Source: Bacteroidales bacterium (GTDB taxonomy: Bacteria > Bacteroidota > Bacteroidia > Bacteroidales > P3). From it: a stretch of 64,000 nucleotides of DNA. Each line of letters starts with the position of its first letter. Position 1 is the first letter of the stretch. Under the pieces are notes generated by a model, which was not told the origin of the DNA, did not search any database, and worked only from the letters and a program-made list of their open reading frames with translations. The position numbers and the translations under genes are program-made. Where the stretch lies: contig JAEENM010000147.1 of the NCBI GenBank assembly GCA_016283745.1, positions 23,079 through 87,078 of the forward strand, in the 5' to 3' direction. Positions 12,801 to 56,118 of this stretch are shown here, piece after piece.

Positions 12801-15800
12801 TCCTGCCGCGCTATTTTCTGCTTTTTGGTTGTATAGGCTCAGCGCTTTTTTCAACGCGCTCACCTTGTCATCGTTCAGGCGGTCGCCTAACGACAATATT
12901 ATAATGTTGGTGTAGTCCGCCACCGTGTCGCCGGTGTCGAATGGGAAAAGATTTTGCTGACGTGCGAAACCGTTCACTTTCTCGCCAGCCTTTATCCCGC
13001 TCTTGCGGGCTTGGTATGTAAGGTTGATGGCCTCGGCCAGCTCGTTTTCCAACGAATAGTCCTCGCCCAGATGTATGTTGTTGCTTATCTCGGTGAGTGC
13101 CGTTATCACCCTTTCGCGCATCGAGGGGAAAGCTGCAAGTTGTCGTATTGCGTCGGGGTTGCTCTCAAAGGCTTTACCGATGAGCATATTCTCCAATATC
13201 TCGCGGCCTCTTGCGCTTATCTTGTCGCCGTCCATCATCTCGGCAAGCTGCATATCGTTGATAACTCCTGCTCCATGCAACTCGGCCAACGCCTGCGGTG
13301 CGGCTTTGGGGTCGTTGTAGAAATCGCCAATGGTGTCGAAACGGTTTATGGTGTTTATGATACGGCCGAAAGTGGCATCATCCACGGTCTTTCCAAGTTT
13401 CACGGCCTGCTCCGTCCTGCTTTGGCTTTTCTTCTCCTCTGCGTTGAATTTGGCAAAGGTGTCGGTGGTGTAGGGCAGGTTCTCGTCGGCCACAAACACC
13501 ACTCGCGGATGTTGCATTGCCGACACCTGCTCGGCGGTGAAACCGAACTGCTGAGGATATTTTTTCAGATGCTCGATATAGGCTCCGTCGGTGTTCTGCT
13601 GTGCGGCAAGCTCGCCCGCCATTGTGCGGCCGTTACCGCTCAACACCACCCCGTCGTTGCTTACCACGGGAACGTCTTTCAACGCCCTGCTGTCGTAGTT
13701 GTCGGCCATCTGTCGGGTGATGCGTTGCGCCTGCTTGTCGCGCTCGTAGTCGCGGTCGTTCACCGTCTGGCCGTTCTCATCGACAGGAAATCCCTCGTAA
13801 CGAGCAAACTCGTTGTTTGGATCGTGGCTCGGTGTTGCCGCTCCGCTTTCGACAAGCACATAATGGCCTTTAATCGTCTCACCGTTGGCAAGTGCTATCT
13901 CATTTTCAAAACCGTCCACTTTCTCGGCGCTCTCCCATTTCTCACGAATGGCGGGATGTGCCGCGTTTGCTCCCCGTTGTGCCTGCTCCTGACGTTTGGC
14001 CAGTTCCTCGGCCTGCCGTTGTCTCTCCCTCTCCTCCGACGCTTCGATGGCGGCTTTCTCTTTTTCCTGCTGTTCTTTTAGTGCGGCGTTGCGCACCTTG
14101 TCGTGCTGTGCCTTTATCTCGTCCCACAGCTGCTTGTCGGCAAGGGCGGCATCGTAGTCGGCTTTTGCCTTGTCGAGTTTTGCCAAAGCGTTTTCCTCTT
14201 TGCCGTAGGGTGCGTTGTCGTAGTCGGCTTGTGCTTTGTCGAGTTTGGTCTTTGCTGCTGCAAGGGTCTTGGCTCTGTCCTGCACGGTGGCGGCTATCTT
14301 GCCCGTGGGGTTGGCACTGTTCGCTGTTATATCGTTGTAAATCTGCTGTGCTTGGGTGAGCGGCTCGGTGCTTCCCTCTGCTACGGGTGTTGTCTCGGTT
14401 TCCGCCACAGGCTCCGTCTCGGTGGGGGTTGTAGGCTCAACGGGTGTTTCGGGTGTCTGCACATCCTCAATACCTCGCATTGCCTTTACCTGCTCCCACA
14501 TGTCTTTGTTGCGCTGTGCGGCTTGCAGGTCTTGTTCCCACTTGGCGTGTTGTGCCTTGTAGTTGTCTATGTCAGTGCCAATCTGTGGTTCTCCGCTCTG
14601 TGCTGTGGCAAGCGCTTTTTCGGCCTCGTCGAGTTTGTTCTGCACGAATTTGTCGGCTTCCTGCTCGTTAAGTCCTGCTTGGTTGTAAACATAGTCGTAG
14701 GTCTGCTCTGTCGTGGCCTGTTCGTAGGCTGGTATCTGCTTGCCTTTTACCTCACGCATAGGCATTGTAAGGCTCGTTTGTGGCTCGGTTGGAGTGATAG
14801 GTGCTTCGCTCTCCGTTTCGGCCTCTACGGGTGTCTGCGGCGTCTCTGCTGGAGTTTCAGCGGTCGGCTCGGCGGCGGTATCTTCCAGCGGTGCTACGTA
14901 GTAGGACTCTATTGCGTTGTTCAGCTCGCTGACATACTTATGCACCACATCGTCACTGTCGGTTATCAGCTCCACGATGTTGCCGTTTTCATCGGGGGTG
15001 AACTGGCCGTTTTTGTACCGCACCCTGCGCAAAACCACAGCATGGCGCAGTTCTCCGTCCTCGTTGAAAGTTACCTCCATGCCGTTGGTGTAGTCGTCCG
15101 GAACACCCTCGACATAGCCTTGCGGCACGGTGTTTGTCTGCGGTGTTTCTTCCGTTGTCTGCTGTTCGGTTTCCTCGCTTCCGGGTGTCTGCTCCTCTGT
15201 GGTTTCGGTCTGTTGTTCCTCCGACACGGCTTGTGGCTCTGCGGTTTTGCTCTCCTCAACCCTCGCAACGTTGGGGTGTCGCTGGTAGTAGCTCTCTATT
15301 GCCGTAGCATCTGCCACGGCCTGCAAGTCGGAGCGTTGCATCACCTCCTGCTGTGGGTTGCCGTTCTCGTCGATGCCCCCTATGGTTATCTCCTCGCCGT
15401 CCTCGCTAATGGCAAGCACTTTGCCCATTATGCCGCTGGAAAGGGGGATTTCATCGCCTATATTGACGCTTATTTTGCCTTGTGCTTTGTCGATAGCCTG
15501 CTGTACGAAACTGTCCCGTGCATTTTGTATCTGCGCATCCACATCGTCGGCCGACATCACGCTGACAAATCCTCTTATCTCGCCCGAAGATATGGCTTTC
15601 TTTTCGCCGGTGTTCGGGTCGTAGATAGTAACCATCTGGTCGCTGTTCTCGGTATCAACGTCCTTTCCACCCTGCAACATCGTAACATTGCCGTCGATAA
15701 GATAAACGGTTTTGTCCTTGTTGGGGTCGTCCTCGTCTATGATGTTCACCTCTTTAACCATCTGGTCGGCTCGGTGTTGTGTCTTTGCCATCTCCCTGCG

Positions 15801-42820: not shown

Positions 42821-45385
42821 ATGGCTAAAAAGACCAAAATATCCCTTTCGCGCCTTGAGTCGTTTCTCAAGGCACAATGCGACCGTCTGCGTACCAGCAT
42901 GGATGCGGCGGAATACAAGAACTATATCATTGCGTTGCTTTTCCTGAAACGAATCAACGACCAGTTTGAAATTGACCGTATTGCGTTGAAAGATGAGCTG
43001 AAAAAGCAATATCCCAATGCCGCTGAAGCCGACATCGAAGCGGAATTGGACATTCCCGAAAAATATATCTGCTACGTGCCCGACAAGGCACGTTGGAAGT
43101 TCGTGCTCAACCTTGTGGATGACGAAGGTGAAAACATAAGTTACGCCGATGCCATTACCACGGCATTGGCCGAGGTGGAGAAATCCAACTCGGCACTGCT
43201 GTCGGGTGTGCTGAGCAAGACCAAGTTTAACGAACTGAACACCAAAGGTGAGCGTGTGCTGGACGAGGAGACGCTCAGCGCTTTGCTCAAGGATTTCAAC
43301 GACTTCCCGAAACTGCAGGACGAGAATTTTGAATTTCCCGACCTGCTTGGCGCGGCATACGAGTATCTGATAAAGTTCTTTGCTGAAAGCGCAGGTAAAA
43401 AGGCTGGCGAGTTCTATACGCCGTCCGAAGTAGTCTATCTGATGGGGCAGATTTTGCAACCAAAGGAGACCGACGAGATTTGTGACCCTACCGTGGGCTC
43501 GGGTGGTTTGCTGATTACGATGCATAACTACGTGGAAAACCGCTACGGAAGCGCCGAACGGCTTACCTTGCACGGACAGGAGAAGTTCGACAGTCCTTAT
43601 CAGATGTGCAAGATGAATATGATTTTCCACAATATACGTAATGCGCGCATCGAACAGGGTGACACGTTGCTGAATCCGAAACTGGTGACGGGCGGCACGC
43701 TCAACCAATACGACATTGTGGTGGCCAATCCGCCATTCTCGCAGAACTACACCACCGCCAATATGCAGTTCAAGGAGCGTTTCCAAAACTGGATGAGCAA
43801 GAAGAAACAAGCCGACTTTATGTTTGTGCAGCACATGATTTCTGTGCTGAAAAACAACGGTCGTATGGCTGTGGTGATGCCGCACGGCGTGCTTTTCCGT
43901 GGCGGCGAGGAGCAGAAAATGCGCCAACGCCTGATTACGGGCAGCGAAGGCCACCCATCTTGCATACTGGAATGTGTCATTGGGCTACCGCAAGGGCTGT
44001 TCTACGGAACGGGCATCCCGGCTTCGCTGCTGATTATCAACAAGGCAGGAGCCGCCGACCGACAAGGCGTCTTCTTCATCAATGCCGACCGAGAGTATAA
44101 GGAAGGCAAGAACCAGAACTCGCTGCGTCCCGAGGACATTGAGAAAATCAGCTACGTCTATCACAACAAGATTGAGATTGAAGGTTATAGCCGTATGGTG
44201 AGCCGCGAGATGCTGGAAGCCGAAGACTACAACTGCAATATCCGCCGCTATGTGGACAATTCGGAGCCGCCCACGCCGCAGGACGTAAAGGCGCACCTGC
44301 AAGGCGGAATTCCCGAAGCGGAAATATTGGCACTGAAAACAGAATTCGACTGCTATAAGGGTTTGCAGAACAAACTATTTACTGCGGCAACCGATGGTTA
44401 CGCCCATTTTGCGGATGCTGTAATGGAGAAAGCCGACATAAAAACCATTATCAGCGAAAGCAAAGGCAAACAGCAGGTTGCCGACGACTACCGCAAGGCG
44501 ATAGAAACCTTCTGGAAAGCCTCGGATGCCGATTTGAACAACCTGCACGGCGGCAGTCTGTTCGATTTCAACAAGAACCTCACCGACAGCTTTGTGTCGG
44601 CGTTGTCGAAATTGAAGGTCTTGGACCAGTATCAGGTGCGCGGCTCGTTCGCCCATTTCTCGGATATGCTGAAAAGCGACTTCCGCAGCGTGCAGTCGAG
44701 CGGATGGACGGCGGAGCTGATTCCCGATGATGAGCTCATTGCCAACGAGTTCCCCGAAGTTTTGGCCGACCTGAAACGGCTCGAAAACCGCCGCGACGAA
44801 CTCGATGCCAAGTTTGCCGAGATTGCCGAAATAGACCCTGAAGAGTGGGACGCTGAGCAATATGAAGTGATGCCCAAAAGTGTGATTTCGGACATTAAAG
44901 CAGAAATCAAAGAGTTGAAAGCCCAGAAACGAGAGTTGGCCAAACAGCAGAAAGCTTTGGAGAAACGTCGCAAGGCAGGTGCGGATGTGGCTAAAGAAAT
45001 GGCACAATGCACTGCCGACATTGCCGGACTCGACAGCCAGATTGCCGAAAAGGAAAACGGCATCGCCCACCATGTGGAACTCGAAAACGAGCTGAAGGAG
45101 AGCCGCCGACAGATACGCGAGATAGAGCGTAGCAAAGAGGCACTGGCCGACAAAGCCCGCGAGCAGATTTCGGACGACGATGCCCGCCGACTGATTACGC
45201 AGCGCTGGCTCGCCACCCTGCACGACAACATTGCCGTCTATCTCGAAGCTCACGCCCGACACTTGCAGCAAAACGTTGAACTGCTTCACGATAAGTATTC
45301 CGTGACGCTACGGAATCTGATTGAGGAGCGTGACGAGGCTACGAAAGAGTTAGACGGGTATTTGAAAGAATTGGGGTATATTTAA
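42821..45385 (+). CDS. hsdM: Type I R-M methyltransferase subunit HsdM with a long C-terminal coiled-coil extension (854 aa)
   Basis: Motif I ICDPTVGSGGLL, motif IV IVVANPPFSQNY, N-terminal HsdM-N-type helix bundle. The last ~350 aa are K/E/A/L-rich. Confidence 0.92.
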   Translation: MAKKTKISLSRLESFLKAQCDRLRTSMDAAEYKNYIIALLFLKRINDQFEIDRIALKDELKKQYPNAAEADIEAELDIPEKYICYVPDKARWKFVLNLVDDEGENISYADAITTALAEVEKSNSALLSGVLSKTKFNELNTKGERVLDEETLSALLKDFNDFPKLQDENFEFPDLLGAAYEYLIKFFAESAGKKAGEFYTPSEVVYLMGQILQPKETDEICDPTVGSGGLLITMHNYVENRYGSAERLTLHGQEKFDSPYQMCKMNMIFHNIRNARIEQGDTLLNPKLVTGGTLNQYDIVVANPPFSQNYTTANMQFKERFQNWMSKKKQADFMFVQHMISVLKNNGRMAVVMPHGVLFRGGEEQKMRQRLITGSEGHPSCILECVIGLPQGLFYGTGIPASLLIINKAGAADRQGVFFINADREYKEGKNQNSLRPEDIEKISYVYHNKIEIEGYSRMVSREMLEAEDYNCNIRRYVDNSEPPTPQDVKAHLQGGIPEAEILALKTEFDCYKGLQNKLFTAATDGYAHFADAVMEKADIKTIISESKGKQQVADDYRKAIETFWKASDADLNNLHGGSLFDFNKNLTDSFVSALSKLKVLDQYQVRGSFAHFSDMLKSDFRSVQSSGWTAELIPDDELIANEFPEVLADLKRLENRRDELDAKFAEIAEIDPEEWDAEQYEVMPKSVISDIKAEIKELKAQKRELAKQQKALEKRRKAGADVAKEMAQCTADIAGLDSQIAEKENGIAHHVELENELKESRRQIREIERSKEALADKAREQISDDDARRLITQRWLATLHDNIAVYLEAHARHLQQNVELLHDKYSVTLRNLIEERDEATKELDGYLKELGYI

Positions 45386-45400
45386 TGGACAATTGCAGTT

Positions 45401-46486
45401 ATGGATATAAACTATAAAAATTGGATAACAAGCATTGCCGCCAGATTCAAACAAGCGCAGATTAAGGCTGCTACGCAGGTGAATGCCGAAATGCTTCGGT
45501 TTTATTGGGAACTGGGGAAGGATGTTCTGCAGCTGTCGGAGACTTCGGCCTATGGTGACAAGGTTTTGCAGAAAATCAGCAAGGATTTGCAGTCTGAACT
45601 GCCAGATGTAAAATCTTTTTCACCGACCAATCTGCTCTATATGAAGAATTTTTATGCTCTTTATTATCAATACATTACAAACGCTCCACAACTTGTGGAG
45701 CAATCAGAAAACGAGTCGGCGCAAATCACTCCACAAGTTGTGGAGCAATCTCAAAAAATACAACTTGAAAAATTATTCAGAATACCGTGGGGACATCAAC
45801 GATATATAATCGACAAGTGCAAAGGTAACCCACGGAAAGCGATTTTCTATGCAAGCAAGACATTGGAAAACAACTGGTCGAGAGCTGTTTTGCTCAATTT
45901 TATGGATACCGACTTGTTTGAACGGCAAGGGAGGGCTATATCGAACTTTAAGAATCAGTTGCCCGCGCCTGACAGCGACTTGGCTCAAGAGATAACCAAA
46001 GACCCGTATAATTTTGATTTTCTTACCATACACGAGCGTTACAACGAAAAAGAACTAAAGGACGCGCTTATGGACAACATCACAAAATTTCTGCTCGAAC
46101 TGGGCAACGGCTTTGCCTTTGTGGGGCGTGAAGTGCGGATTATGGTCGGCAACAAGGAGAAGTTTATTGATATGCTCTTTTATAACATCAAGCTGCATTG
46201 CTATGTGGTGCTCGAAGTTAAGGTGACACCGTTTGAATCGGAGTATGCGGGACAGCTCGGCACCTATGTGGTGGCGGTGAATCATCAGCTCAAAGGCGAA
46301 AAAGATGCCGCCACCATTGGCATTTTGGTGTGCAAAGGCTTGGACAAGGTTGAAGCACAATATGCGTTGGAGTCGTCGAGCCAGCCCATAGGCATATCCG
46401 GCTATACGCTGTCGAAACTCATCCCCGAAAAATTCAAATCTTCGCTGCCAAGTATTGAGGAAATCGAAGATTCAATAAACAATTGA
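45401..46486 (+). CDS. YhcG/DUF1016-family PD-(D/E)xK nuclease-like protein (361 aa)
   Basis: N-terminal WELGKDV...YGDKVLQKISKDL and C-terminal FIDMLFYNIKLHCYVVLEVKVTPF...GQLGTYV are characteristic of DUF1016. Nested between hsdM and hsdS. Confidence 0.75.
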   Translation: MDINYKNWITSIAARFKQAQIKAATQVNAEMLRFYWELGKDVLQLSETSAYGDKVLQKISKDLQSELPDVKSFSPTNLLYMKNFYALYYQYITNAPQLVEQSENESAQITPQVVEQSQKIQLEKLFRIPWGHQRYIIDKCKGNPRKAIFYASKTLENNWSRAVLLNFMDTDLFERQGRAISNFKNQLPAPDSDLAQEITKDPYNFDFLTIHERYNEKELKDALMDNITKFLLELGNGFAFVGREVRIMVGNKEKFIDMLFYNIKLHCYVVLEVKVTPFESEYAGQLGTYVVAVNHQLKGEKDAATIGILVCKGLDKVEAQYALESSSQPIGISGYTLSKLIPEKFKSSLPSIEEIEDSINN

Positions 46487-46488
46487 CA

Positions 46489-47742
46489 ATGATGACCGAG
46501 CAAGAACATAATAATGTACAATGGAAGAAGGTTCGTTTTGGCGAGTTCTTTGATATGCTGCCGACAAACACATTGTCAAGGGATAAATTAAACAACCAAC
46601 AAGGTGAATATCAGAATGTTCATTACGGCGATGTTTTGATAAAGTACCCATTTTGTCTTGACTGTAACAACGCTGAAATCCCTTACATAAACGACGGTGT
46701 TAAGTTTAATATGGCAGAAGTTCGTGATGGTGATGTGATTTTTGCTGATACGGCGGAAGATGATACTGTTGGAAAGTGTGTTGAAGTGTTGAATGTAGGT
46801 GACAGAAAAATTGTCTCAGGTTTACACACATATTTTTGCAGACCAAGACATAAAATGGCATTGGGTTATTTGGGCTATTATTTGAATAGCAATCATTTCC
46901 ACAACCAATTGTTGCCTTATATAGCAGGTTCCAAGGTTTCGTCTGTAAACAGGACTTCCATTGCTCGCACTTTTATTTCCTATCCCGCCGACCTTTCCGC
47001 CCAGCGCCGCATAGCCGCCATACTCACTTCTGCCGACAAGGTGATAGCCGCCACGCAGAAAACCATAGCCAAATACAAGCAGATGAAGCAGGGAATGATG
47101 GAAGACCTTTTCAATGAACAATGTATAATGAACAATGTACAATGGAAGAAGGTGAGGTTGGGGGAATACATTGAATTGCAAGGAGGTTTTGCGTTTCAAA
47201 GTCGTGATTTTTCAGATTCAGGAGTTCCTTTAATACGAATAGGGGATATAACACCTAACGGACTAAATATTAGTAATTCTGCAAAACTGCCAATTGATTA
47301 TTTGACTGAATATGAAAATTTTGTATTGAATATTAATGATACTGTTATTGCAATGTCAGGCGCAACGACGGGAAAATGCACATTAGTTACTCAAAAAGAC
47401 ATACCTGCATTATTAAATCAACGGGTTGGACGGTTTAGGATTAAAAACAACAGTATTGATAAATTGTTCTTATACTATATTGTAAGTAATAACGTGTATC
47501 AGCAGAAATTACTATTAGATGCCGTTGGTGGAGCACAACCTAATGTAAGTCCAAAACAAATAGAATCGGTGTTTTGCAATGTTCCAATTCTATCGGACGG
47601 AAGACCAAATCTTACCGAGCAGCGCCGCATCGCCGCCATACTTTCGGACATAGATGCAAAAATAGCGGCGGAGGAAAAGGTGCTGGAGAAATATGAGAAG
47701 GCGAAGAAGGGGTTGATGGAGAGATTGTTGAACGAGAAATGA
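46489..47742 (+). CDS. hsdS: Type I R-M specificity subunit HsdS (two TRDs)
   Basis: Duplicated NNVQWKKVR(F/L)GE TRD starts and duplicated conserved helices (A/E)QRRIAAIL...KY(K/E)..K.G(M/L)ME.L(F/L). The ATG at 46489 is preferred over the TTG at 46483. Confidence 0.9.
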   Translation: MMTEQEHNNVQWKKVRFGEFFDMLPTNTLSRDKLNNQQGEYQNVHYGDVLIKYPFCLDCNNAEIPYINDGVKFNMAEVRDGDVIFADTAEDDTVGKCVEVLNVGDRKIVSGLHTYFCRPRHKMALGYLGYYLNSNHFHNQLLPYIAGSKVSSVNRTSIARTFISYPADLSAQRRIAAILTSADKVIAATQKTIAKYKQMKQGMMEDLFNEQCIMNNVQWKKVRLGEYIELQGGFAFQSRDFSDSGVPLIRIGDITPNGLNISNSAKLPIDYLTEYENFVLNINDTVIAMSGATTGKCTLVTQKDIPALLNQRVGRFRIKNNSIDKLFLYYIVSNNVYQQKLLLDAVGGAQPNVSPKQIESVFCNVPILSDGRPNLTEQRRIAAILSDIDAKIAAEEKVLEKYEKAKKGLMERLLNEK

Positions 47743-47776
47743 TAATTTATAATAAAACATAAAATAATTATTATAT

Positions 47777-50719
47777 ATGAATAAGAAGAAATTAGAAACG
47801 ACAGAGAGCAAAAGAATAGATAAGATAGAGGGCTTAACTATAGACAAATTAAATAAAACAATAGTTCAGCTTTTAAAGATTACAAATTTTGAAAATATAG
47901 TTGAGAACGAAAACTATATTATAGCAACAGAGAAATCATATTTTTCGGAAATAAAGCACGTGTTTGTTATTCCAACAATAAGGATGAGTGGGAGTATTGA
48001 TATCGATAGTGTAGTAAAATTAATTGAATCCATTCAGTCAAATGAATTGGCAAATGTCGTAACATTAGTATCGCAATTCCACATATCAAAGGGCTTTCGT
48101 GCGGCTTTTGAAGCGAAGTTGAACAATATTAAGTTTGATTATCTTGATAGAGATGTTTTGATTCAATATATCAATAAATATAATGATTCTTTTTGGAGAC
48201 ATGAAGATGTAGAGTTGCTTTCTTACGAAAAGTACTTCAAGGAACAATTAAATAACGAAAATCAACTTAAAAAGCTTCATCTGTCCAATGATAAATATCA
48301 AAAAATAATCAACTTATATATACAACCGACACTCTCAACAAATGAAGAAGAAGCCAAGACGCACACATACCATAGAAAAAGAGTTGATGTCGAAGGCGTG
48401 TTGAATGAGCCATCGTGCGTATTTCTAAGTGGAATTTCTGGCTCAGGGAAAACAACATTGTTAAAGAGGATTGGAGTAAAACTATTAGAGAATAATGATA
48501 CTAAAGACGGTAAGTTGAATCTACCCATCTTTATCACATCTTCTGATTTACTAGAACACAATCGTAATATCAATGATGTAATTCTGTCAAAAACAAAAAA
48601 CCATCTCCCCTATGATAAATTGCATGAATTATCAGATAAATACGATGTTAGTGTTCTTGTTGACAGTATAGACGAGTTTGAAGAAAAAGACAGAATGGAA
48701 ATATTGCGCGTTCTATTAAACAACTATACTAATAAAGGTATGAAGTTTTACATCGGTTCTCGTGGGACATCTATTGAAGATGAAAGATTACCAATAAAAG
48801 GGAAAATTAGAGAATATTACATCAATAGCTTCAATCAAGAACAGATTAAAAGATATGTGCAAGCACTTTTGCCTAATGAAGATAAGGCCAACTCGTTAAT
48901 GGATTCTTTACGAGAAAATAAAATTCTTGAGAAATTGCCAATTACACCTTTGACGCTTTCTCTCATAACTATTATATACGATGAGCAAGATTATGAAATC
49001 CCTGCAACTGTTACTGATATATACAAACAATTTAACAATATTATAAACGGTAGGAATATTGTTTCAACAAAATTTGAATTTGTTGATATTAGTTTTAGGG
49101 AAAGGGTTTTGTCAATCTACGGGTTATATCTTCTTGAACAACCAAATCATGAGCCCATGAAACGAAAAGAGTTTGTCTCGTTTTACAAAGAGTTCTTCAA
49201 AGGAAAATCTTTAACATTCGAATACGAACAAATTGACGATGTGTTGGAGTATATCCTTAATAACACTGGAATACTATACCTTAAAGAGGATAATACTGTG
49301 CGTTTTGCTCATGATTCATATATGGAGTTCTATGCAGCAGTTGAAATTTTTAATTATCATAGAGAGAAAGAAGATGATATTGTTTCAAACTTCTTTGATT
49401 TAATGTGGCAGAATGTTGCCATATTCTATGGTGGAATGACAAAAGATATGTGCCTTTTTGCAGAGAAGATAAACAATAAATTAAAAAGTGCCGCTAAATT
49501 TATTGAATACATATCTGGCATACAAGGTGCGGGTTATTTATTACAAGCACTTTATATGACTGACAATGAAAAAAGAAAGGATGTTATTCTAACTGCTCTT
49601 GATTTGGTTTTGGAAACAAATGAGTTTTTTAAAAAAATGACCACAATCAATGAGACAATGTTCCAAAACTACAGATTACCAATTGTCCAACTGCTAAATT
49701 TTCTCCATTTCTACGAGATGTTTAATTCATTAACTCTACGAGAACCGTTGACAATGACTTTTGAGCAATTGCGAACAGAATACGAATTTATGTTGGAGGA
49801 TAAAAACAGTATTGACACAACCAAGCTTCCTGCTTTAGGATATAAACTTATAGAATTAGCATTTACTTTGGATTCCAAGCGATTAAATGATCAAAGAGCT
49901 TTAAATTATGTTGTTGAACAAAATGAGTTAATGCGAGATAGTAATCTATATTCATTGATGAATCTATGCCTAGATTTTTTAAATAAAACAAATTATAAAG
50001 AATTAAGGCAAAGTGTATCAAAGAGTGCTTCAAAAATACAACCTCTACTCAATGTGCTTTCCGATGATCCTACCGGAAAAATACGTTTCTCTCCAATGGA
50101 TAGTGTTCATCCGAATCGTAAAGTAAAATTATTTGTTGAAGGGAAATCAGATGCCATAATACTCGAACATGCTTATATGACTCTTACAGGAGGGCAATCC
50201 CCATATTGGAACATAGCTATGGCTACAAGTAACGGAGAAACCGGTTCGTCTATAGAGGTTACTAAAGCCATTGAAACAGCTCTAAATTATAAAAACGAGT
50301 ATGATTTCATTATTGGCTTATTCGATCATGATGCTGCTGGTTTGAAAGAGTTCTGTAGATTAAACAGTGATTCTTATGAACAGATAGAAAAACGGTGTAT
50401 AAAACGAAGAAAAAATAGTAATATATTTGTAATGTGTCTGCCGATTCCAGCAGAAATGATTCAATATGAGCAAGAAAGACAGGAGTTCAATTTCTTTGAA
50501 ATAGAGCATTACTTTGGGCATGATTATCTGAAACGAAACAATATGATAAAAGAGAAACAAACTTTAGATAATGTATATGAAATTAAAGATAAAAATAAAA
50601 TACCATTTGCATATGATATTTGCAAGGAGGTGACCCCAGAAATATTTAAATTTTTTGTGGATTTATTTAAAAAAATAGATGAAATAACAGGAAGACAGAT
50701 TGATTATTTGATTAATTAA
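47777..50719 (+). CDS. STAND/NACHT NTPase with a C-terminal TOPRIM-like domain and an N-terminal Mrr-like region (980 aa)
   Basis: Walker A FLSGISGSGKTTLLKRIG, Walker B VSVLVDSIDEFEE, NACHT-type LPITPLTLSLI and FAHDSYMEFYAA. C-terminal KLFVEGKSDAIILEHAY + GLFDHDAAG gives the TOPRIM Glu and DxD motifs. Visibly AT-rich compared with the hsd genes. Confidence 0.8.
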   Translation: MNKKKLETTESKRIDKIEGLTIDKLNKTIVQLLKITNFENIVENENYIIATEKSYFSEIKHVFVIPTIRMSGSIDIDSVVKLIESIQSNELANVVTLVSQFHISKGFRAAFEAKLNNIKFDYLDRDVLIQYINKYNDSFWRHEDVELLSYEKYFKEQLNNENQLKKLHLSNDKYQKIINLYIQPTLSTNEEEAKTHTYHRKRVDVEGVLNEPSCVFLSGISGSGKTTLLKRIGVKLLENNDTKDGKLNLPIFITSSDLLEHNRNINDVILSKTKNHLPYDKLHELSDKYDVSVLVDSIDEFEEKDRMEILRVLLNNYTNKGMKFYIGSRGTSIEDERLPIKGKIREYYINSFNQEQIKRYVQALLPNEDKANSLMDSLRENKILEKLPITPLTLSLITIIYDEQDYEIPATVTDIYKQFNNIINGRNIVSTKFEFVDISFRERVLSIYGLYLLEQPNHEPMKRKEFVSFYKEFFKGKSLTFEYEQIDDVLEYILNNTGILYLKEDNTVRFAHDSYMEFYAAVEIFNYHREKEDDIVSNFFDLMWQNVAIFYGGMTKDMCLFAEKINNKLKSAAKFIEYISGIQGAGYLLQALYMTDNEKRKDVILTALDLVLETNEFFKKMTTINETMFQNYRLPIVQLLNFLHFYEMFNSLTLREPLTMTFEQLRTEYEFMLEDKNSIDTTKLPALGYKLIELAFTLDSKRLNDQRALNYVVEQNELMRDSNLYSLMNLCLDFLNKTNYKELRQSVSKSASKIQPLLNVLSDDPTGKIRFSPMDSVHPNRKVKLFVEGKSDAIILEHAYMTLTGGQSPYWNIAMATSNGETGSSIEVTKAIETALNYKNEYDFIIGLFDHDAAGLKEFCRLNSDSYEQIEKRCIKRRKNSNIFVMCLPIPAEMIQYEQERQEFNFFEIEHYFGHDYLKRNNMIKEKQTLDNVYEIKDKNKIPFAYDICKEVTPEIFKFFVDLFKKIDEITGRQIDYLIN

Positions 50720-50734
50720 TAAATAGTATCTTAG

Positions 50735-50881
50735 CACAAACAACCCGCCAAGAAATTAATTGTAAATTGTTCATTGTAAATTGTTAATTGATTATGAGTG
50801 AATATACCAACGTTGAGCATCCTTTTCTCGAAAAGCTGCGCGAGATAGGCTGGCAAGTGATAGACAAAGGCAGCGGCGGCG
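50735..50881 (+). repeat. Copy A of the hsdR upstream region + first 29 codons
   Basis: Manual alignment to 52805-52944. From the ATG, 4 mismatches over 87 nt. The upstream part differs by about one heptamer indel plus a few substitutions. Confidence 0.9.
50756..50790 (+). repeat. Heptamer-phased tract (TWMATTG x5) immediately upstream of the hsdR-remnant ATG
   Basis: ttaattg|taaattg|ttcattg|taaattg|ttaattg. Confidence 0.8.
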
Positions 50882-50892
50882 GATATTTTTGA
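50794..50892 (+). pseudogene. Truncated hsdR 5' remnant (MSEYTNVEHPFLEKLREIGWQVIDKGSGGGYF*)
   Basis: Identical over the first 15 aa and near-identical afterwards to the true HsdR N-terminus at 52858. Diverges after GSGG and stops. Confidence 0.85.
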
Positions 50893-50975
50893 AACATTCA
50901 GTTGCAAGTTCTTCTGAAAAATCGTATTTTTGCATAATCGTAAAATAGAATTGAAATAAATAAAATATATTGATA

Positions 50976-52262
50976 ATGAGCAGAATAAAGGTTAGGAACT
51001 TCGGGCCCATCCGCGAAGGGTTCATCGATAACGACGGATGGTTAGACATTGGAAAAGTCACCGTTTTCATCGGAGACCAAGCCTCCGGCAAAAGCACCGT
51101 GGAGAAATTGGTTTCGTTGTTCACATGGATAGAAAAAAGTATAGTTCGTAATTTGATTTCACCGGATCAATTAAATGTCGATATTTTTAAGAATTTATGT
51201 GCTCAGCAGGATATTATCGAATATTTTGCCAAAAACACATTTTTGTCCTTTAAGGGAGAGGCATACGACTTTGAATACGATGAGGTAAAAAAATCTTTTA
51301 AATCTAGAATCAACAATACGGGATACAAGAGCTATGTTTTGCCCAAAATTCAATATGTATCAGCGGCAAGGAATCTGCTTACAATTTTGTATAACATTTC
51401 ATTACAGAATATTGTTGACAAAAATGGCAATGTTATAGATTTGTCTTCAAATATCCCGTTTATGGTCAGGGTTTTGAATATTGAATACTTGAAAGCGTTG
51501 GAAGAATATGCGAAAAATGGATTTGCTTTGCCAATAAACGACACAAGTGTGTACTATCAGAATCATAACACATATATTATGGCAAAAGGCAATCGGGTAT
51601 CAATGGCAGCGGCTTCAAGTGGCATACAGTCTATAACGCCATTGCTGCTTGTCAGTCATTCTTTGTCGAATGAAGTAAGGAGAGACATATATGAGAAAGT
51701 ACAAACGATAGATAATAATCTTAAAAACAGAATAGAGGCTGATTTTGCAAAAGAAAAATCGAGTTTGTACGATAAATTCAAACAGATTAGTTCTTTTGGA
51801 AGGGGAATTTTGACAGACAAAGAAGACGAAAAATTGTTGGATACGAAATTGAAAAAATACATTCCTTCATCTTTTATCAACATTGTTGAAGAACCAGAGC
51901 AGAACTTGTTTCCCAACTCTCAGCAAAAGGTAATAAATAGATTATTGGAGTACAACAATGCCGTAAAAGAAAATAAACTTATACTTTCCACTCATTCGCC
52001 CTATACTTTGACGGCACTTAACAATTCTATTTTAGCAGAAGAAGTGTTTGAAAAAACAGGAAAGTCAATTGATGCTTACAGCCCGGAAAAGATGGTCTCT
52101 TTTGCTGATGTTGCCGCCTACCAATTAGAGGATGGCAAAATAATCAGCATAAAAGATGAAGAAACCAGACTGATAAATGCAGATGCCATTGATGGTTGCT
52201 CTGCAAAAATAAATTCCGATTTTGATGACTTGTTAGATTTGTTGCCCGAAAACGATGAATAG
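50976..52262 (+). CDS. ABC/SMC-type (AAA_15/21-like) ATPase, candidate defence ATPase (428 aa from ATG)
   Basis: IKVRNFGPI lead-in, Walker A FIGDQASGKST, signature-like AASSGIQS, Walker B FINIVEEPEQNLFP, H-loop LILSTHSP. AT-rich. Confidence 0.8.
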   Translation: MSRIKVRNFGPIREGFIDNDGWLDIGKVTVFIGDQASGKSTVEKLVSLFTWIEKSIVRNLISPDQLNVDIFKNLCAQQDIIEYFAKNTFLSFKGEAYDFEYDEVKKSFKSRINNTGYKSYVLPKIQYVSAARNLLTILYNISLQNIVDKNGNVIDLSSNIPFMVRVLNIEYLKALEEYAKNGFALPINDTSVYYQNHNTYIMAKGNRVSMAAASSGIQSITPLLLVSHSLSNEVRRDIYEKVQTIDNNLKNRIEADFAKEKSSLYDKFKQISSFGRGILTDKEDEKLLDTKLKKYIPSSFINIVEEPEQNLFPNSQQKVINRLLEYNNAVKENKLILSTHSPYTLTALNNSILAEEVFEKTGKSIDAYSPEKMVSFADVAAYQLEDGKIISIKDEETRLINADAIDGCSAKINSDFDDLLDLLPENDE

Positions 52263-52264
52263 CG

Positions 52265-52732
52265 ATGAATGTTCAAAATAATGGTATAAAAATCACGGCT
52301 CCCTCATTTTCAACCGACGTTGAACTAAGCAATGACAAACGCCAGTCTTTTGTGTTGAAAGGCGAGCATAAACGGAAATGGACAGCGGAAAATCCAAATA
52401 AACATATTGGGGTTTGTTTGAAAATAGATGATGCATTGATAGCAACAGAGCAGCAGAATAAGTGCGACCGCGGGCTTTTGTTGGATGATAATCGTTTGTA
52501 TTTGGTCGAACTCAAGGGCGATGATTATAAAACCGCAGTAATCCAACTGATTGAAACAAAGAAATACTTTTTGTCCAATTATTCAGATTATGATTTGGCC
52601 TTTCATGCAAGAATTGTAGGAAGGTCTTTCCCGAAAGCGACAACAGAACTTCAAAAGGCTAAGAAAGATTTAAAGAAGAACTTTGGCAATAATTTTGCAC
52701 TATTTGAGAATAAAAGATCAGAGAAAATATGA
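52265..52732 (+). CDS. Small PD-(D/E)xK-like protein partnered with the ATPase (155 aa)
   Basis: KCDRGLLLDDNRLYLVELKGDDYKTAVIQL gives a D...E-x-K arrangement. The start is 3 nt after the ATPase stop. Confidence 0.6.
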   Translation: MNVQNNGIKITAPSFSTDVELSNDKRQSFVLKGEHKRKWTAENPNKHIGVCLKIDDALIATEQQNKCDRGLLLDDNRLYLVELKGDDYKTAVIQLIETKKYFLSNYSDYDLAFHARIVGRSFPKATTELQKAKKDLKKNFGNNFALFENKRSEKI

Positions 52733-52769
52733 GTGAATACGCGAACGTTTAGCATCCTATTTTTTTCTC
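52729..52769 (+). repeat. Copy C: degenerate ~40-bp remnant of the hsdR 5' end
   Basis: atgagtgaatacgcgaacgtttagcatcctattttttt versus atgagtgaatatacaaatgttgagcatccttttctc. Contains an in-frame TAG. Its ATG overlaps the TGA of the 155-aa gene. Confidence 0.7.
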
Positions 52770-52804: not shown

Positions 52805-52944
52805 CACAAACAACCCGACAAGCAAAATAATTGTTAATTGTAAATTGTTAATTGATTATGAGTGAATATACAAATGTTGAGCATCCTTTTCTCGAAAAGC
52901 TGTGCGAGATAGGTTGGCAAGTGATAGACAAAGGCAGCGGCGGC
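52805..52944 (+). repeat. Copy B: authentic hsdR upstream region + 5' end
   Basis: See copy A. Confidence 0.9.
52827..52854 (+). repeat. Heptamer-phased tract (WTAATTG x4) immediately upstream of the hsdR ATG
   Basis: ataattg|ttaattg|taaattg|ttaattg. Confidence 0.8.
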
Positions 52945-55900
52945 ATTCCGCAAGACCCCGCCGAGAGTATGCGCACGTCGTTCAGCGAAGTGGTGCTCAA
53001 AGATGAGTTCTTCAAGAAGTTGGGCGAACTCAACCCGTGGATAACCGCGGAGCAAAAGGAATACTGCTACCGCAAAATCACCGACATTGACAAGCCGCTA
53101 ACCGATGCCAACCGCGAGATTCACAATATGCTGCTCGAAGGCATCCACCTGCGCACCAAAAACGAACAGACGGGCGAGGAAAACCCAACAGCCAAAGTCA
53201 TCAACTTCGACAGATACGAGAAAAACTCTTTCATTGCCATCAACCAGTTCCGTGTAGATACCAACAACACCAAACCCTTCATCATCCCCGACATTGTCTG
53301 CTTTGTCAACGGTCTGCCGCTAGTGGTGATTGAGTGCAAAGACGAGAATGTCTCGGAGCCGATGAGCGAAGCCTTCGACCAGATAAAACGCTACGCCAAC
53401 CAGCGTGTCATCGACGACCCTTTTGCCGACGGCATATCGGAGGGCTGCGAGCGGCTGTTCCATACCAACCTGTTCAGCGTCATCACCCGTGGCGTTGAGG
53501 CGCGATGCGGCACCATCTCGGCCGATTTCGATTTTTATCTCAATTGGAAAGACATATTTCCCGAAGAGTACGCCGAAGGCACCAACATCAACCCCGCCGA
53601 ACGACAGGAAATCCTTATCAAAGGAATGTTCAACCACGAGATTCTGATTGACATCTACCGCAACTTCACGCTCTATATGCAGAAAGGCGACAACACGGTG
53701 AAAATCATCTGCCGCTATCAGCAATATCGCGCCGTGGGCAAAATGATTCGCCGCTTACAGAGCGGCACCGACTGGCGTAGCCGAAGCGGCGTCATCTGGC
53801 ACACGCAGGGCAGCGGCAAGTCGCTCACAATGGTGTTTCTGGTCAAGAAGATGCGCCGCATTGCTGACCTTCGCGACTACCGCATACTGATGGTGGTTGA
53901 CCGCCACGACTTGGAAGACCAGTTGGCCGAAACCGCCGAATACACAGGCGAACTGCGCCACGACCCGACGACCAAGAAGGTTCAGAACATTGTGGAGAAC
54001 CGTCAGGCGCTGGTGAAACTCGAAGGCGACACCGCCGACCTTAACTTGGTGATGATTCACAAGTTCGGCGAAAACAAGGAGTACTCGCTCGAATCGCTGA
54101 TAAATGCAGGCATTGTGCCGCAATACGAGTCGTTCCCCGTCATCAACGAGAGCCCGAAGATTCTGGTGCTGATAGACGAGGCGCACCGCAGCCAGGGCGG
54201 CGAGATGGGCGACAACCTGTTCCAGGCTTTCCCCAATGCGGCACGCATCGGTTTCACTGGCACACCGCTCATTACGCCGCGCCATAAGGCAACCACCTGC
54301 GAGCGTTTCGGTCAGCAGGCGGGAGTTTTCATCGATACATACAAGATGAACGATTCGGTGCGCGACAACGCCACCGTTGATATAAAATACATCGGTCGCA
54401 AAAGCGACGACAGCATACCGTTCAAAGACGAGTTCGATGCTGAATTTGAACGCACATTCGCCAACCGCTCGCAAGAGGAGCGAATTGAGATTCAGAAACG
54501 TTACGGCACAATGATTGCCTACCTTGAAAGTGCCGACCGAGTGATGAAAAACGCCCGCGATATGCTTGCGCATTACGTTTCGGAAATCCTTCCAAACGGA
54601 TTCAAAGCGCAGGTTGTGGCATCGTCAATTATGGCGGCAGTGCGTTACAAAATCGCTCTCGAAAAGTTGATTCCTGAATTTATTGCGGCAGAAGAACAAA
54701 AGTCGGACGACGAGCGCGACAATGTGATGTTGCAACGCCTGCGCATGTTGAAGGTTCGGGCTGTGGTGTCGAGTGCGGGCAACAACGAGGCCGCAATTAT
54801 TCGCACTGCCCGAATAGAAGCCGACACCGACGATGCCATCACCAACTTCAAAAAGGATTTCGATGCAGAGAATCCGCTTTCGGGCATTGGCATCCTTTGT
54901 GTCTGCGACCGCCTTCTGACGGGTTTCGATGCGCCAGTTGAGCAGGTGATGTATCTCGACAAAAACCTGTCGGAGCACAACCTGATGCAGGCCATCACCC
55001 GTGTGAACCGCACCAAGAAGAACAAAAAGCACGGCATTGTGGTCGATTACTTCGGCGTCACCAAAAACCTGCACAAGGCTCTGGGCATCTACAATGCCGA
55101 CGATGAGAAAGCGGCAAAAGAGGATTTGGCAGAGTTCGAAACCTATTTTTCCGCCATCGAAAAAGAGATCCCCGAGTTGGAGATGCGTTACAACAAAATT
55201 GTTCAGCGATTCGAGAACGAGGGCATTGCCGACATCAACGATTTTCTTGAGCAACGCACAAGCAGGGAGCGCGAAAAGGAACTTTGTGAAAAGATTGTGG
55301 AAGTGGCCGAAAGCATCAAATTCCGTTCGGAGTTGGATGCCTTGTTCCGCCTGTTCTTCGACATCTTCGACCTGCTTTTCAACGAGCCTGAAACACGCAG
55401 CCGCTATTATGTCCCCGCCAAACGAATGGCCTACATTGTGGCACTCATACGTTGGCACTATAAAGATGAGACGCTCGATTTGAAATGGGCGAGCGAGAAA
55501 GTGCGCCGCCTGCTCGACAAATACCTGAAATCAGATGGTGTTCGCGAGACAGTTCCCGAAGTGGATATCTTGTCGGATGATTTCCCAAAGATTGTTAGCA
55601 ATATGTACGGCAATCCGCAGACTGTGGCTTCGGCTATGGAGCACCAAATCCGCGACCGTATCATTATCAAATTGGGTGAAGGACGGAACACCGCACTTTA
55701 TCAGAAGTTCAAAGACCGAATGGAAAACATTCTCACCACATACGCTGGCAACTGGTCGGAGATGATAAGCGAATTGGAGCGTCTGCGTCAGGAATTGGCA
55801 AATCCGAAACCCGCTGTGGTGTCGGAGGAAAAAGAGCCCTTCTACGACAAACTCTGCCAATGCGCAGGCGTGGATTTTGAGGATCGCCACGACAATATCA

Positions 55901-56118
55901 TCGCTGTCACTGATCAGGTGATGACGCTGATATATGCTGCTATGTCCATTCCGAACATCTGGACAAAACCAACCAACGTGAACGATTTGCGAGGAAAGAT
56001 TGGCACAACATTGCGATTCTCGGGCATTCAGCAACTGAAAGAGAACAGCGAATCCATTGTTACAGAATTGATTAAGTTGGCAAAAAGTAATGAGAGCGTT
56101 TTGAGGCAATTCGTATGA
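52858..56118 (+). CDS. hsdR: Type I R-M restriction/helicase subunit HsdR (1086 aa from ATG)
   Basis: N-terminal nuclease region IPDIVCFVNGLPLVVIECKD (PD..E-x-K), helicase motif I WHTQGSGKSLTM, motif II LVLIDEAHRSQ, motif III GFTGTP, motif VI QAITRVNR. Confidence 0.95.
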   Translation: MSEYTNVEHPFLEKLCEIGWQVIDKGSGGIPQDPAESMRTSFSEVVLKDEFFKKLGELNPWITAEQKEYCYRKITDIDKPLTDANREIHNMLLEGIHLRTKNEQTGEENPTAKVINFDRYEKNSFIAINQFRVDTNNTKPFIIPDIVCFVNGLPLVVIECKDENVSEPMSEAFDQIKRYANQRVIDDPFADGISEGCERLFHTNLFSVITRGVEARCGTISADFDFYLNWKDIFPEEYAEGTNINPAERQEILIKGMFNHEILIDIYRNFTLYMQKGDNTVKIICRYQQYRAVGKMIRRLQSGTDWRSRSGVIWHTQGSGKSLTMVFLVKKMRRIADLRDYRILMVVDRHDLEDQLAETAEYTGELRHDPTTKKVQNIVENRQALVKLEGDTADLNLVMIHKFGENKEYSLESLINAGIVPQYESFPVINESPKILVLIDEAHRSQGGEMGDNLFQAFPNAARIGFTGTPLITPRHKATTCERFGQQAGVFIDTYKMNDSVRDNATVDIKYIGRKSDDSIPFKDEFDAEFERTFANRSQEERIEIQKRYGTMIAYLESADRVMKNARDMLAHYVSEILPNGFKAQVVASSIMAAVRYKIALEKLIPEFIAAEEQKSDDERDNVMLQRLRMLKVRAVVSSAGNNEAAIIRTARIEADTDDAITNFKKDFDAENPLSGIGILCVCDRLLTGFDAPVEQVMYLDKNLSEHNLMQAITRVNRTKKNKKHGIVVDYFGVTKNLHKALGIYNADDEKAAKEDLAEFETYFSAIEKEIPELEMRYNKIVQRFENEGIADINDFLEQRTSREREKELCEKIVEVAESIKFRSELDALFRLFFDIFDLLFNEPETRSRYYVPAKRMAYIVALIRWHYKDETLDLKWASEKVRRLLDKYLKSDGVRETVPEVDILSDDFPKIVSNMYGNPQTVASAMEHQIRDRIIIKLGEGRNTALYQKFKDRMENILTTYAGNWSEMISELERLRQELANPKPAVVSEEKEPFYDKLCQCAGVDFEDRHDNIIAVTDQVMTLIYAAMSIPNIWTKPTNVNDLRGKIGTTLRFSGIQQLKENSESIVTELIKLAKSNESVLRQFV

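Follow-up and report, generated by a model that had tools for sequence, protein, structure and literature searches.

Bacterial NLR-like proteins are evolutionary cousins of the immune receptors of animals and plants. Within this group the bacterial NACHT (bNACHT) proteins, including the Mrr-NACHT protein bNACHT25, are antiphage by experiment, and Kibby et al. used the Walker B signature D[GAS]hDE to separate NACHT proteins from other STANDs (bioRxiv 10.1101/2022.07.19.500537). Toprim is not among the many NACHT-associated domains listed by those authors (0 occurrences; bioRxiv 10.1101/2022.07.19.500537), and the usual order in a STAND protein is an N-terminal effector and a C-terminal sensor (PMC13581612). 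Here we describe a gene, from a family known from genes and predicted structures alone, that encodes a NACHT nucleoside triphosphatase (NTPase) with a Toprim nuclease domain at its C-terminus. It lies at 47777..50719 on the plus strand of a 64,000-nucleotide (nt) stretch from a Bacteroidales bacterium (GenBank assembly GCA_016283745.1, contig JAEENM010000147.1, positions 23,079 to 87,078 of the forward strand), the whole of which we call the window. Reading the gene, its models and its analogies together, we put at roughly 0.7 the probability that the product is a self-contained, single-gene, NLR-like (bNACHT) antiphage protein whose predicted weapon is the C-terminal Toprim nuclease.

Domain architecture of the NACHT/Toprim protein

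The gene (P0001) is a single open reading frame (ORF) with an ATG start and a stop codon at 50717-50719; it encodes 980 amino acids (aa) and, by the ORF list and translation, is the sole long frame in this interval. All of the motifs quoted in the initial annotation of this DNA are present in the frame where they had been placed: the Walker A motif GISGSGKTTLLKRIG (residues 219-233), the Walker B motif VLVDSIDEFEE (293-303), the NACHT-type motifs LPITPLTLSLI (387-397) and FAHDSYMEFYAA (510-521), and the Toprim motifs KLFVEGKSDAIILEHAY (784-800) and GLFDHDAAG (847-855). A homologue search that covered 5.8 billion proteins gave at least 221 clusters (a lower bound), almost all of them full-length (955-986 aa) and 40-91% identical; the few named clusters are labeled “NACHT domain-containing protein” or “hypothetical protein.” Conservation was assessed in 163 sequences (119 metagenomic sequences and a set of 44, mostly genome loci), which reach down to about 32% identity and come from several Bacteroidota orders. 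K225, D296, D299, E300, R329, H512, E788, G789, D792, D850, D852, G855, E910 and H911 are invariant in all 163. By its conservation this is a real gene, beyond what chance would give. The copies at two other loci, L042 (match 10001-12877) and L061 (10001-12650), have longest ORFs of only 496 and 427 aa and look interrupted, as pseudogenes or through assembly errors.

The domain order is a dead Mrr-type domain, a NACHT NTPase with a winged helix, about 230 aa of helices, and a Toprim domain; the whole-protein AlphaFold2 (AF2) model, with 59 homologues as input, has a predicted local distance difference test score (pLDDT) of 83.4 and a predicted TM-score (pTM) of 0.70. Judging from the alignment, the active-site residues of the NTPase and the Toprim domain are under strict purifying selection, and the Mrr active site has decayed.

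The NACHT nucleotide-binding domain (residues 206-370, 48392..48886, plus strand) was located by Pfam PF05729 and by invariant residues, and the NACHT call of the initial annotation holds. PF05729 scores 40.9 bits against a gathering score of 26.7, over residues 214-367 and profile positions 2-166 of 167. The Walker A pattern GxxxxGK[ST] appears as G219-ISGS-G224-K225-T226, with K225 invariant and position 226 always S or T, and Walker B reads D296-S297-I298-D299-E300, which fits the D[GAS]hDE signature (across the 163 sequences, S and T occur at 297). In a Foldseek search with the full AF2 model, where the full-length alignments listed are all NACHT-driven, the best 39 PDB matches are NLRC4, NOD2, NLRP1/2/3/7/9, NAIP and oocyte cytoplasmic-lattice entries (E 4.6e-9 to 1e-5), led by NLRC4, NOD2 and NLRP3 at about 5e-9. 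By Walker A, Walker B, Pfam and fold alike, the protein belongs with the bacterial NACHT proteins and is a bacterial relative of the animal NLR immune sensors. When PDB sequences were searched with the full protein, or with A2 and A3 (narrow profiles of the family), nothing meaningful came up beyond ferritin and CheY at E > 0.1, and an NCBIfam scan of the protein gave only P-loop noise.

A helical linker with a beta-hairpin precedes the NTPase (residues 136-205, 48182..48391, plus strand), delimited by DSSP and by invariant columns, with W140, H142, D144, Y150 and E151 conserved. Helical domain 1 and the winged-helix domain follow the NTPase (residues 371-535, 48887..49381, plus strand) and carry LPITPLTLSLI and the invariant F510-x-H512; PF24406 (nSTAND_NTPase4) matches weakly at residues 461-520. 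In the predicted winged-helix domain a beta-hairpin leads into a helix that opens with the invariant F510-A-H512, whose His is a candidate counterpart of NLRC4 H443, the two proteins being aligned at the level of the whole model only. The all-helical C-terminal domain of the NOD module (residues 536-770, 49382..50086, plus strand) is the long helical region seen in the initial annotation, and the DSSP helices of the AF2 model run through it (542-769); as an isolated piece it has no Pfam family at E <= 10, and it is a candidate sensor or spacer.

The Toprim nuclease domain (residues 771-980, 50087..50716, plus strand) was identified by model, fold and profile and holds E788-x3-D792, D850-H-D852 and E910-H911. 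Modeled alone, it reaches pLDDT 89.6 and has the Toprim strand-helix order: in the predicted models strand 1 (783-787) leads into E788 and strand 3 (844-849) into D850-H-D852, all invariant in the 163 sequences. The sole significant Foldseek match of this model in the PDB is chain C of 9i2f, retron Eco2 (E 1.6e-5, prob 1.0, TMq 0.57, 221 columns), with weak matches behind it to AriB of PARIS, GajA, the DnaG primase domain and type IA and II topoisomerases. Against viral structures Foldseek found nothing significant, and DnaG, topoisomerase and Toprim proteins were over-represented among the weak matches. Profile A6, a broadened Toprim profile that includes relatives from outside the family, matches the Ec67 protein at E 2.1e-4 over residues 361-578, the only PDB profile match that is aligned along the Toprim fold, and sets E788, D792, D850 and D852 on Eco2 E374, D378, D460 and D462. 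The dead-Toprim variant of Eco2 is mutated at exactly these four Eco2 positions, and their substitution abolishes both RNase activity and defense (PMC12916289). The TOPRIM Glu and DxD named in the initial annotation are thus found again in fold and profile, and, on the combined sequence and model evidence, the protein ends in a true Toprim nuclease domain that belongs to the OLD/retron-Eco2 lineage.

An exhaustive HMMER search with the Toprim-domain profile found 656 proteins, 79 of which were scanned (76 from outside the family, with 3 distant full-length NACHT members added). In 50 of these 79 the Toprim domain sits at the C-terminus of an AAA_15/AAA_21 ABC ATPase, which is the OLD architecture, so that ABC-ATPase fusions make up most of its closest kin outside the family; fusions to PemK and to Roc-COR-LRR account for three each, and given this range of partners the domain behaves as a portable effector. 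Pfam OLD-like_TOPRIM touched two of the 79, at E of about 3e-4. The OLD and GajA Toprims are DNases. The Toprim of retron Eco2 is an RNase with tRNA as its preferred substrate, and tRNA is likewise cut by AriB of PARIS (PMC12916289). Since the nearest characterized relative is a tRNA-preferring RNase, “nuclease” need not mean DNase here, and for the putative substrate, RNA/tRNA or DNA, we lean slightly to RNA by analogy.

Three of the Toprim relatives (P0234, P0235 and P0245) carry W in place of an otherwise invariant Gly (TEWKTD, IIWLFDNDxEW). From the sequences, this looks like the product of organisms that read TGA as Gly (code 25, e.g. Gracilibacteria) translated with a table in which TGA is Trp.

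The N-terminal domain (residues 1-135, 47777..48181, plus strand), delimited by DSSP and by hhalign to a sister protein, has the restriction-endonuclease fold, appears to be Mrr-derived and is catalytically degenerate. Its order in the AF2 model (DSSP alpha-alpha-beta-beta-beta-alpha-beta-alpha-beta-alpha) fits that fold and agrees, over the first ~135 aa, with the secondary-structure rhythm seen earlier. The claim that this region is Mrr-like was sustained by one route and failed by another. At E <= 10 the domain has no Pfam match, Mrr_cat (PF04471) included, the whole-genome Pfam scan placed no Mrr_cat match on this protein, and a word-index search with the N-domain profile returned same-family fragments only. 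A direct Mrr_cat link was rejected after hhalign against five Mrr_cat domains from related genomes gave Prob 1%, and a route through the sister protein was used instead. This sister, a NACHT protein of 798 aa without Toprim, comes from another genus of the host's bacterial family, where three genomes carry it (L017:1168-3564, also L018 and L019); the two proteins have the NACHT and helical body in common, with 27% identity across residues 95-664 (E 2e-56). Pfam Mrr_cat matches the first 176 aa of the sister above its cut-off (26.0 bits against 21), and hhalign joins the family profile A3 to this N-terminus over residues 13-186 (Prob 98%, E 1.7e-13). Descent of the N-domain from Mrr is supported in this transitive way, through the alignment with the sister protein only.

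The sister protein's Asp aligns with position 46 and its Lys with position 66. In the family the Mrr catalytic positions hold N, D, G or V (46), I, V, F or L (64) and F, P, L or Y (66), with no conserved Lys, and the first three strands contain no conserved acidic or Lys residue. With the Asp and the (E/Q)xK lost, the domain is, on these alignments, catalytically dead; the initial annotation had likewise seen no clear D/E-x-K in the first ~130 aa, and the equivalent positions are variable in the 163 sequences. The domain is retained in all full-length members and is the most variable region of the protein, its mean pairwise identity of 0.34 being the lowest of all regions; the helical C-terminal domain has 0.51, the Toprim domain 0.53, the winged-helix domain 0.59 and helical domain 1, the most conserved, 0.74.

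Distribution and the type I restriction operon

The gene occurs in two of 401 species genomes of the host order and in one of 261 genomes of the host family, that of the window itself; three others of the family carry only the 27%-identical sister. A pattern scan that used one genome per species found 38 further loci, all 38 of them in Bacteroidota: Bacteroidaceae, Prevotella, Marinilabiliaceae, Prolixibacteraceae, Sphingobacteriaceae, Cytophagales, Flavobacteriaceae, Weeksellaceae, Chitinophagaceae and Saprospiraceae, among others. The family seems confined to this phylum and is very patchy within it. Its gene has a guanine-cytosine (GC) content of 0.31 in the window, against 0.51-0.52 for the flanking hsdM and hsdR.

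Ten contexts (the window and nine contexts from metagenomes or metagenome-assembled genomes) were annotated in detail, and eight of them include known or candidate defense genes. Three are type I restriction-modification (R-M) operons (the window, L007 and L008); others hold Kiwa with AbiH, SIR2-HerA with Abi_2, or a KAP-NTPase/QatB/TatD cluster with TIR. One has an ORC/Cdc6-like and methylase cluster, whose genes are candidate defense genes by our own attribution, with no defense-family scan behind it. When the two nearest genes on each flank were compared across 34 non-redundant loci, type I R-M subunits proved the most frequent Pfam/PADLOC families, and no other partner gene recurs there. 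At 10 of the 34 assessable loci the gene is embedded in an hsd operon, where it precedes hsdR in the same orientation (the window, L007, L008/L026/L027, L029, L031, L034, L052 and L054); the hosts include Bacteroidales, Marinilabiliaceae/Prolixibacteraceae and Weeksellaceae, and a maximum-likelihood tree implies at least six independent gains or losses of this embedding. About 70% of the assessable loci have no hsd gene within 10 kb. Between the window and L007, which share the same arrangement, HsdM and HsdR are 80-82% identical and the NACHT protein 72%, with a gene GC of 31% in both. At 19225-22785 of L008/L009, beside the P0057 homologue, several hsdS genes lie in both orientations with an integrase fused to a Methylase_S domain, and this type I locus looks like a phase-variable specificity shufflon.

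In the window the operon runs hsdM, a YhcG/DUF1016 gene, hsdS, the NACHT gene, a copy of the hsdR start, the PDC-M29 pair, hsdR and a YgjP peptidase gene. The type I R-M gene hsdM (42821-45385) encodes a protein of 854 aa in which the methyltransferase domains reach to about residue 481 and a K/E/A-rich extension makes up the other ~370 aa; the HsdM of L007 is equally long (856 aa, 80% identical). Between hsdM and hsdS lies the gene for a YhcG/DUF1016 PD-(D/E)xK protein (45401-46486; PADLOC PDC-S02, 505 bits). Its counterpart in L007 is only 26% identical against ~80% for HsdM and HsdR, so this slot appears to have been exchanged. The hsdS gene (46483..47742, plus strand; Pfam Methylase_S) ends 34 nt before the NACHT gene. 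No terminator-like site was found in 47400-51100, an interval that begins in the 3′ part of hsdS and closes shortly after the NACHT gene, and a sigma-70 promoter scan, with a model not suited to Bacteroidota, stayed at chance level.

The region downstream appears to preserve a record of insertion. Directly after the NACHT gene, a 116-nt copy of the hsdR start (50765..50880, plus strand) forms a direct repeat with 52829-52944 at 96% identity, and a third, shorter and decayed copy (52728-52761) follows the PDC-M29 pair. To judge from the repeat, 50765-50880 marks the fossil of an old NACHT-hsdR junction that predates the PDC-M29 insertion, and the three copies of the hsdR start and its upstream region suggest that cassettes were stacked in front of hsdR. 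The PDC-M29 pair, a PADLOC candidate (50970-52262 and 52265-52732), consists of an AAA_15/AAA_21 ATPase and a small protein without a Pfam family; A matches at 291.6 bits over its full length and B at 30.9 bits. Then comes hsdR of the same operon (52852..56118, plus strand; Pfam HSDR_N, SWI2_SNF2 and T1R_D3-like).

Proposed function and its alternatives

The initial annotation had proposed a defense STAND, and its proposal stands as far as genomic context and patchy distribution reach; with the low GC and the single-gene status, the defense-gene context and the distribution make a role in defense most likely. At rest the protein would be an ADP-bound closed monomer with its Toprim domain kept inactive. 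A phage-derived cue, sensed by the fast-evolving dead Mrr domain or by the helical domain, would open the NACHT module, and NTP binding would then drive oligomerization. The oligomer would bring together or unmask the Toprim domains for Mg2+-dependent cutting of nucleic acid (RNA/tRNA or DNA), which would stop phage replication, probably at a cost to host growth. The dead Mrr domain is a candidate sensor because it evolves fastest, and it may equally be an oligomerization adaptor: in Avs7, tetramers form through the nuclease domains (PMC13581612). As to origin, an Mrr-NACHT ancestor of the bNACHT25 type, comparable to the sister protein, may have acquired an OLD-type Toprim domain at its C-terminus, after which the N-terminal nuclease would have decayed into an adaptor or sensor. 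The gene is compact and stands alone, and K225, H512 and E788/D850/D852 are obvious targets for mutation.

Several observations weigh against this reading. The variability of the dead Mrr domain could equally reflect decay, and the helical region, with its mean pairwise identity of 0.51, is not especially variable, so that apart from the dead Mrr domain there is no clear diversifying-sensor domain. Measured against the usual STAND order, the layout is inverted. A Pfam check domain by domain, as the initial annotation had suggested, places only NACHT above its cut-off: Mrr_cat has no match, and the Toprim models stay below theirs, the best being Toprim_2 with 12.9 bits against 22.1 (E 0.14), so that solved Toprims can be reached only through a broadened profile or a predicted structure. 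Finally, homologues in surroundings without defense genes, which the initial annotation had named as a possible counterargument, make up two of the ten detailed contexts, against the eight with such genes.

The operon itself invites another explanation: that the protein is coupled to R-M in the manner of PrrC or PARIS, as a second line behind type I restriction that stays latent while R-M works. We consider this unlikely, and we are similarly doubtful of the trigger it would call for, a phage anti-restriction factor (e.g. a DNA mimic to which the dead Mrr domain would bind, or a lost contact with Hsd) upon which the Toprim domain would cut tRNA. It would account for the embedding upstream of hsdR at 10 of 34 loci, gained or lost at least six times across diverse hosts, for the rank of type I subunits as top neighbor families, for the arrangement kept by the window and L007 despite HsdM and HsdR at 80-82% identity, and for the terminator-free 47400-51100, which covers the hsdS-NACHT junction and the gene; the Toprim relatives Eco2 and AriB do cut tRNA, and PrrC and RloC are “often found in R-M operon” (PMC3710099). 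However, some 70% of assessable loci lack hsd genes, so any coupling must be optional. Type I loci also take in unrelated defense genes quite generally, as DUF1016/PDC-S02 and PDC-M29 show in the window, and any protein-protein contact with Hsd subunits would be hypothetical. It is improbable, on present analogies, that we are looking at a new type of restriction-operon guard, with a decayed Mrr domain re-used as a decoy or sensor for anti-restriction factors or for modified or mimic DNA and releasing an Eco2-like Toprim tRNase; if true, PrrC and PARIS would have a functional analogue built on a STAND, one repeatedly taken up into the hsdS-hsdR slot.

There is also a slim chance that the Toprim domain is itself a nucleic-acid-binding sensor or regulator, the output being a non-canonical activity of the N-domain or a separately encoded effector. 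Some Toprim domains, e.g. that of RecR, bind DNA without cutting it. The N-domain is kept in all full-length members, and the C-terminal end is the sensor in canonical STANDs (PMC13581612). Such a role is hard to square with five acidic metal-binding residues and H911 that stay invariant to about 32% identity, as expected for catalysis, with alignment to Eco2 residues needed for RNase activity and defense, with an N-domain whose first three strands hold no conserved acidic or Lys residue, or with the lack of a conserved neighbor gene that might act as an effector in trans. Very improbable, finally, is a role outside immunity, in which the NTPase-nuclease would serve DNA repair or a mobile element's addiction, exclusion or transfer, the gene hitch-hiking in variable regions. 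Some copies do lie in integrative or mobilizable elements (integrase, relaxase) or beside transposases, and two loci are found among housekeeping or capsule genes; however, no mobile-element gene is a consistent neighbor, most loci are defense islands, and the architecture matches that of the experimentally antiphage bNACHT proteins.

Comparison with known defense systems

The initial annotation had thought that the arrangement might be undescribed, which fits with what was found in databases and the literature. PADLOC v2.0.0 has no model for the protein and gave P-loop-level matches only (mad8 at E 8e-4, TRIP13 at E 9e-3), and full-text literature searches found no paper describing a NACHT-Toprim (or bNACHT-Toprim) fusion. 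The main text of a 2026 survey of 589 STAND clades does not mention Toprim; the survey as a whole probably contains this clade.

Membership in several known groups was considered and rejected: in MADS, where the PADLOC mad8 match is at the P-loop level only; in Avs, as no PADLOC Avs model matches; in the retrons, as there is no reverse transcriptase; in the OLD family, as the NTPase is a NACHT domain and the ABC-ATPase fusions are relatives of the Toprim domain only; and in PrrC/RloC, as Pfam found neither an ABC ATPase nor HEPN.

The PrrC and RloC anticodon nucleases are likewise NTPase-nuclease fusions in type I R-M operons, although here the shared feature is position only, at 10 of 34 loci; they consist of an ABC ATPase and HEPN, without homology to either half of this protein, and most members of our family are not linked to R-M. 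In its own locus prrC occupies the hsdS-hsdR slot, and it is in this slot of type I restriction operons that the present family recurs. The name of RloAB, “restriction-linked ORFs,” comes from their place in type I loci. AriB of PARIS and AbiLii/RloB (DUF4435 Toprim effectors) share with the present protein a Toprim effector in an abortive-infection-type system, and AriB is a weak fold match; unlike it, they are separate small proteins under a partner ABC ATPase, and Pfam and PADLOC scans gave no DUF4435, AriB or AbiLii match. Avs families 1-5 and 7 also combine a STAND NTPase with a nuclease effector and probably oligomerize on a phage cue; they differ in their N-terminal effector, their large TPR-like C-terminal sensors and their mostly non-NACHT STAND clades.

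Closer on the effector side are the OLD nucleases, GajA of Gabija and the OLD protein of retron Eco8, which have an N-terminal P-loop NTPase and a C-terminal Toprim domain, as here, except that the NTPase of our protein is STAND/NACHT and not an ABC ATPase. The reverse transcriptase-Toprim protein of retron Eco2 (Ec67; PMC12916289, PDB 9i2f) has the same E-x3-D ... DxD tetrad, and its Toprim domain is the C-terminal effector of a larger sensor module, as predicted for our protein; unlike Eco2, the latter has no reverse transcriptase and no msDNA (multicopy single-stranded DNA) cage, and control would come from the NACHT NTPase. On the side of the switch, the counterpart is bNACHT25, a single-gene system of defense islands in which an Mrr-like restriction endonuclease is joined to NACHT. 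The two share that status and context, the D[GAS]hDE Walker B, an N-terminal Mrr-type domain and a helical C-terminal domain, and H512 is a candidate for the conserved winged-helix histidine of the bNACHT proteins; they differ in the Mrr catalytic residues, lost here, and in the extra Toprim domain at the extreme C-terminus of our protein.

Thus, the protein represents an uncharacterized bNACHT family with its effector inverted and replaced, whose parts are familiar and whose layout appears undescribed; its architecture, its exchanged effector and its recurrence in restriction operons are unusual. It would be a natural case of effector replacement in one receptor scaffold, with the N-terminal nuclease dead and a different, intact nuclease at the C-terminus, and it could both add a named defense system and show a NACHT oligomer activating a C-terminal effector. 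The family links NLR-type switches to the OLD/retron-Eco2 Toprim lineage, which is otherwise known with ABC ATPases or reverse transcriptases.

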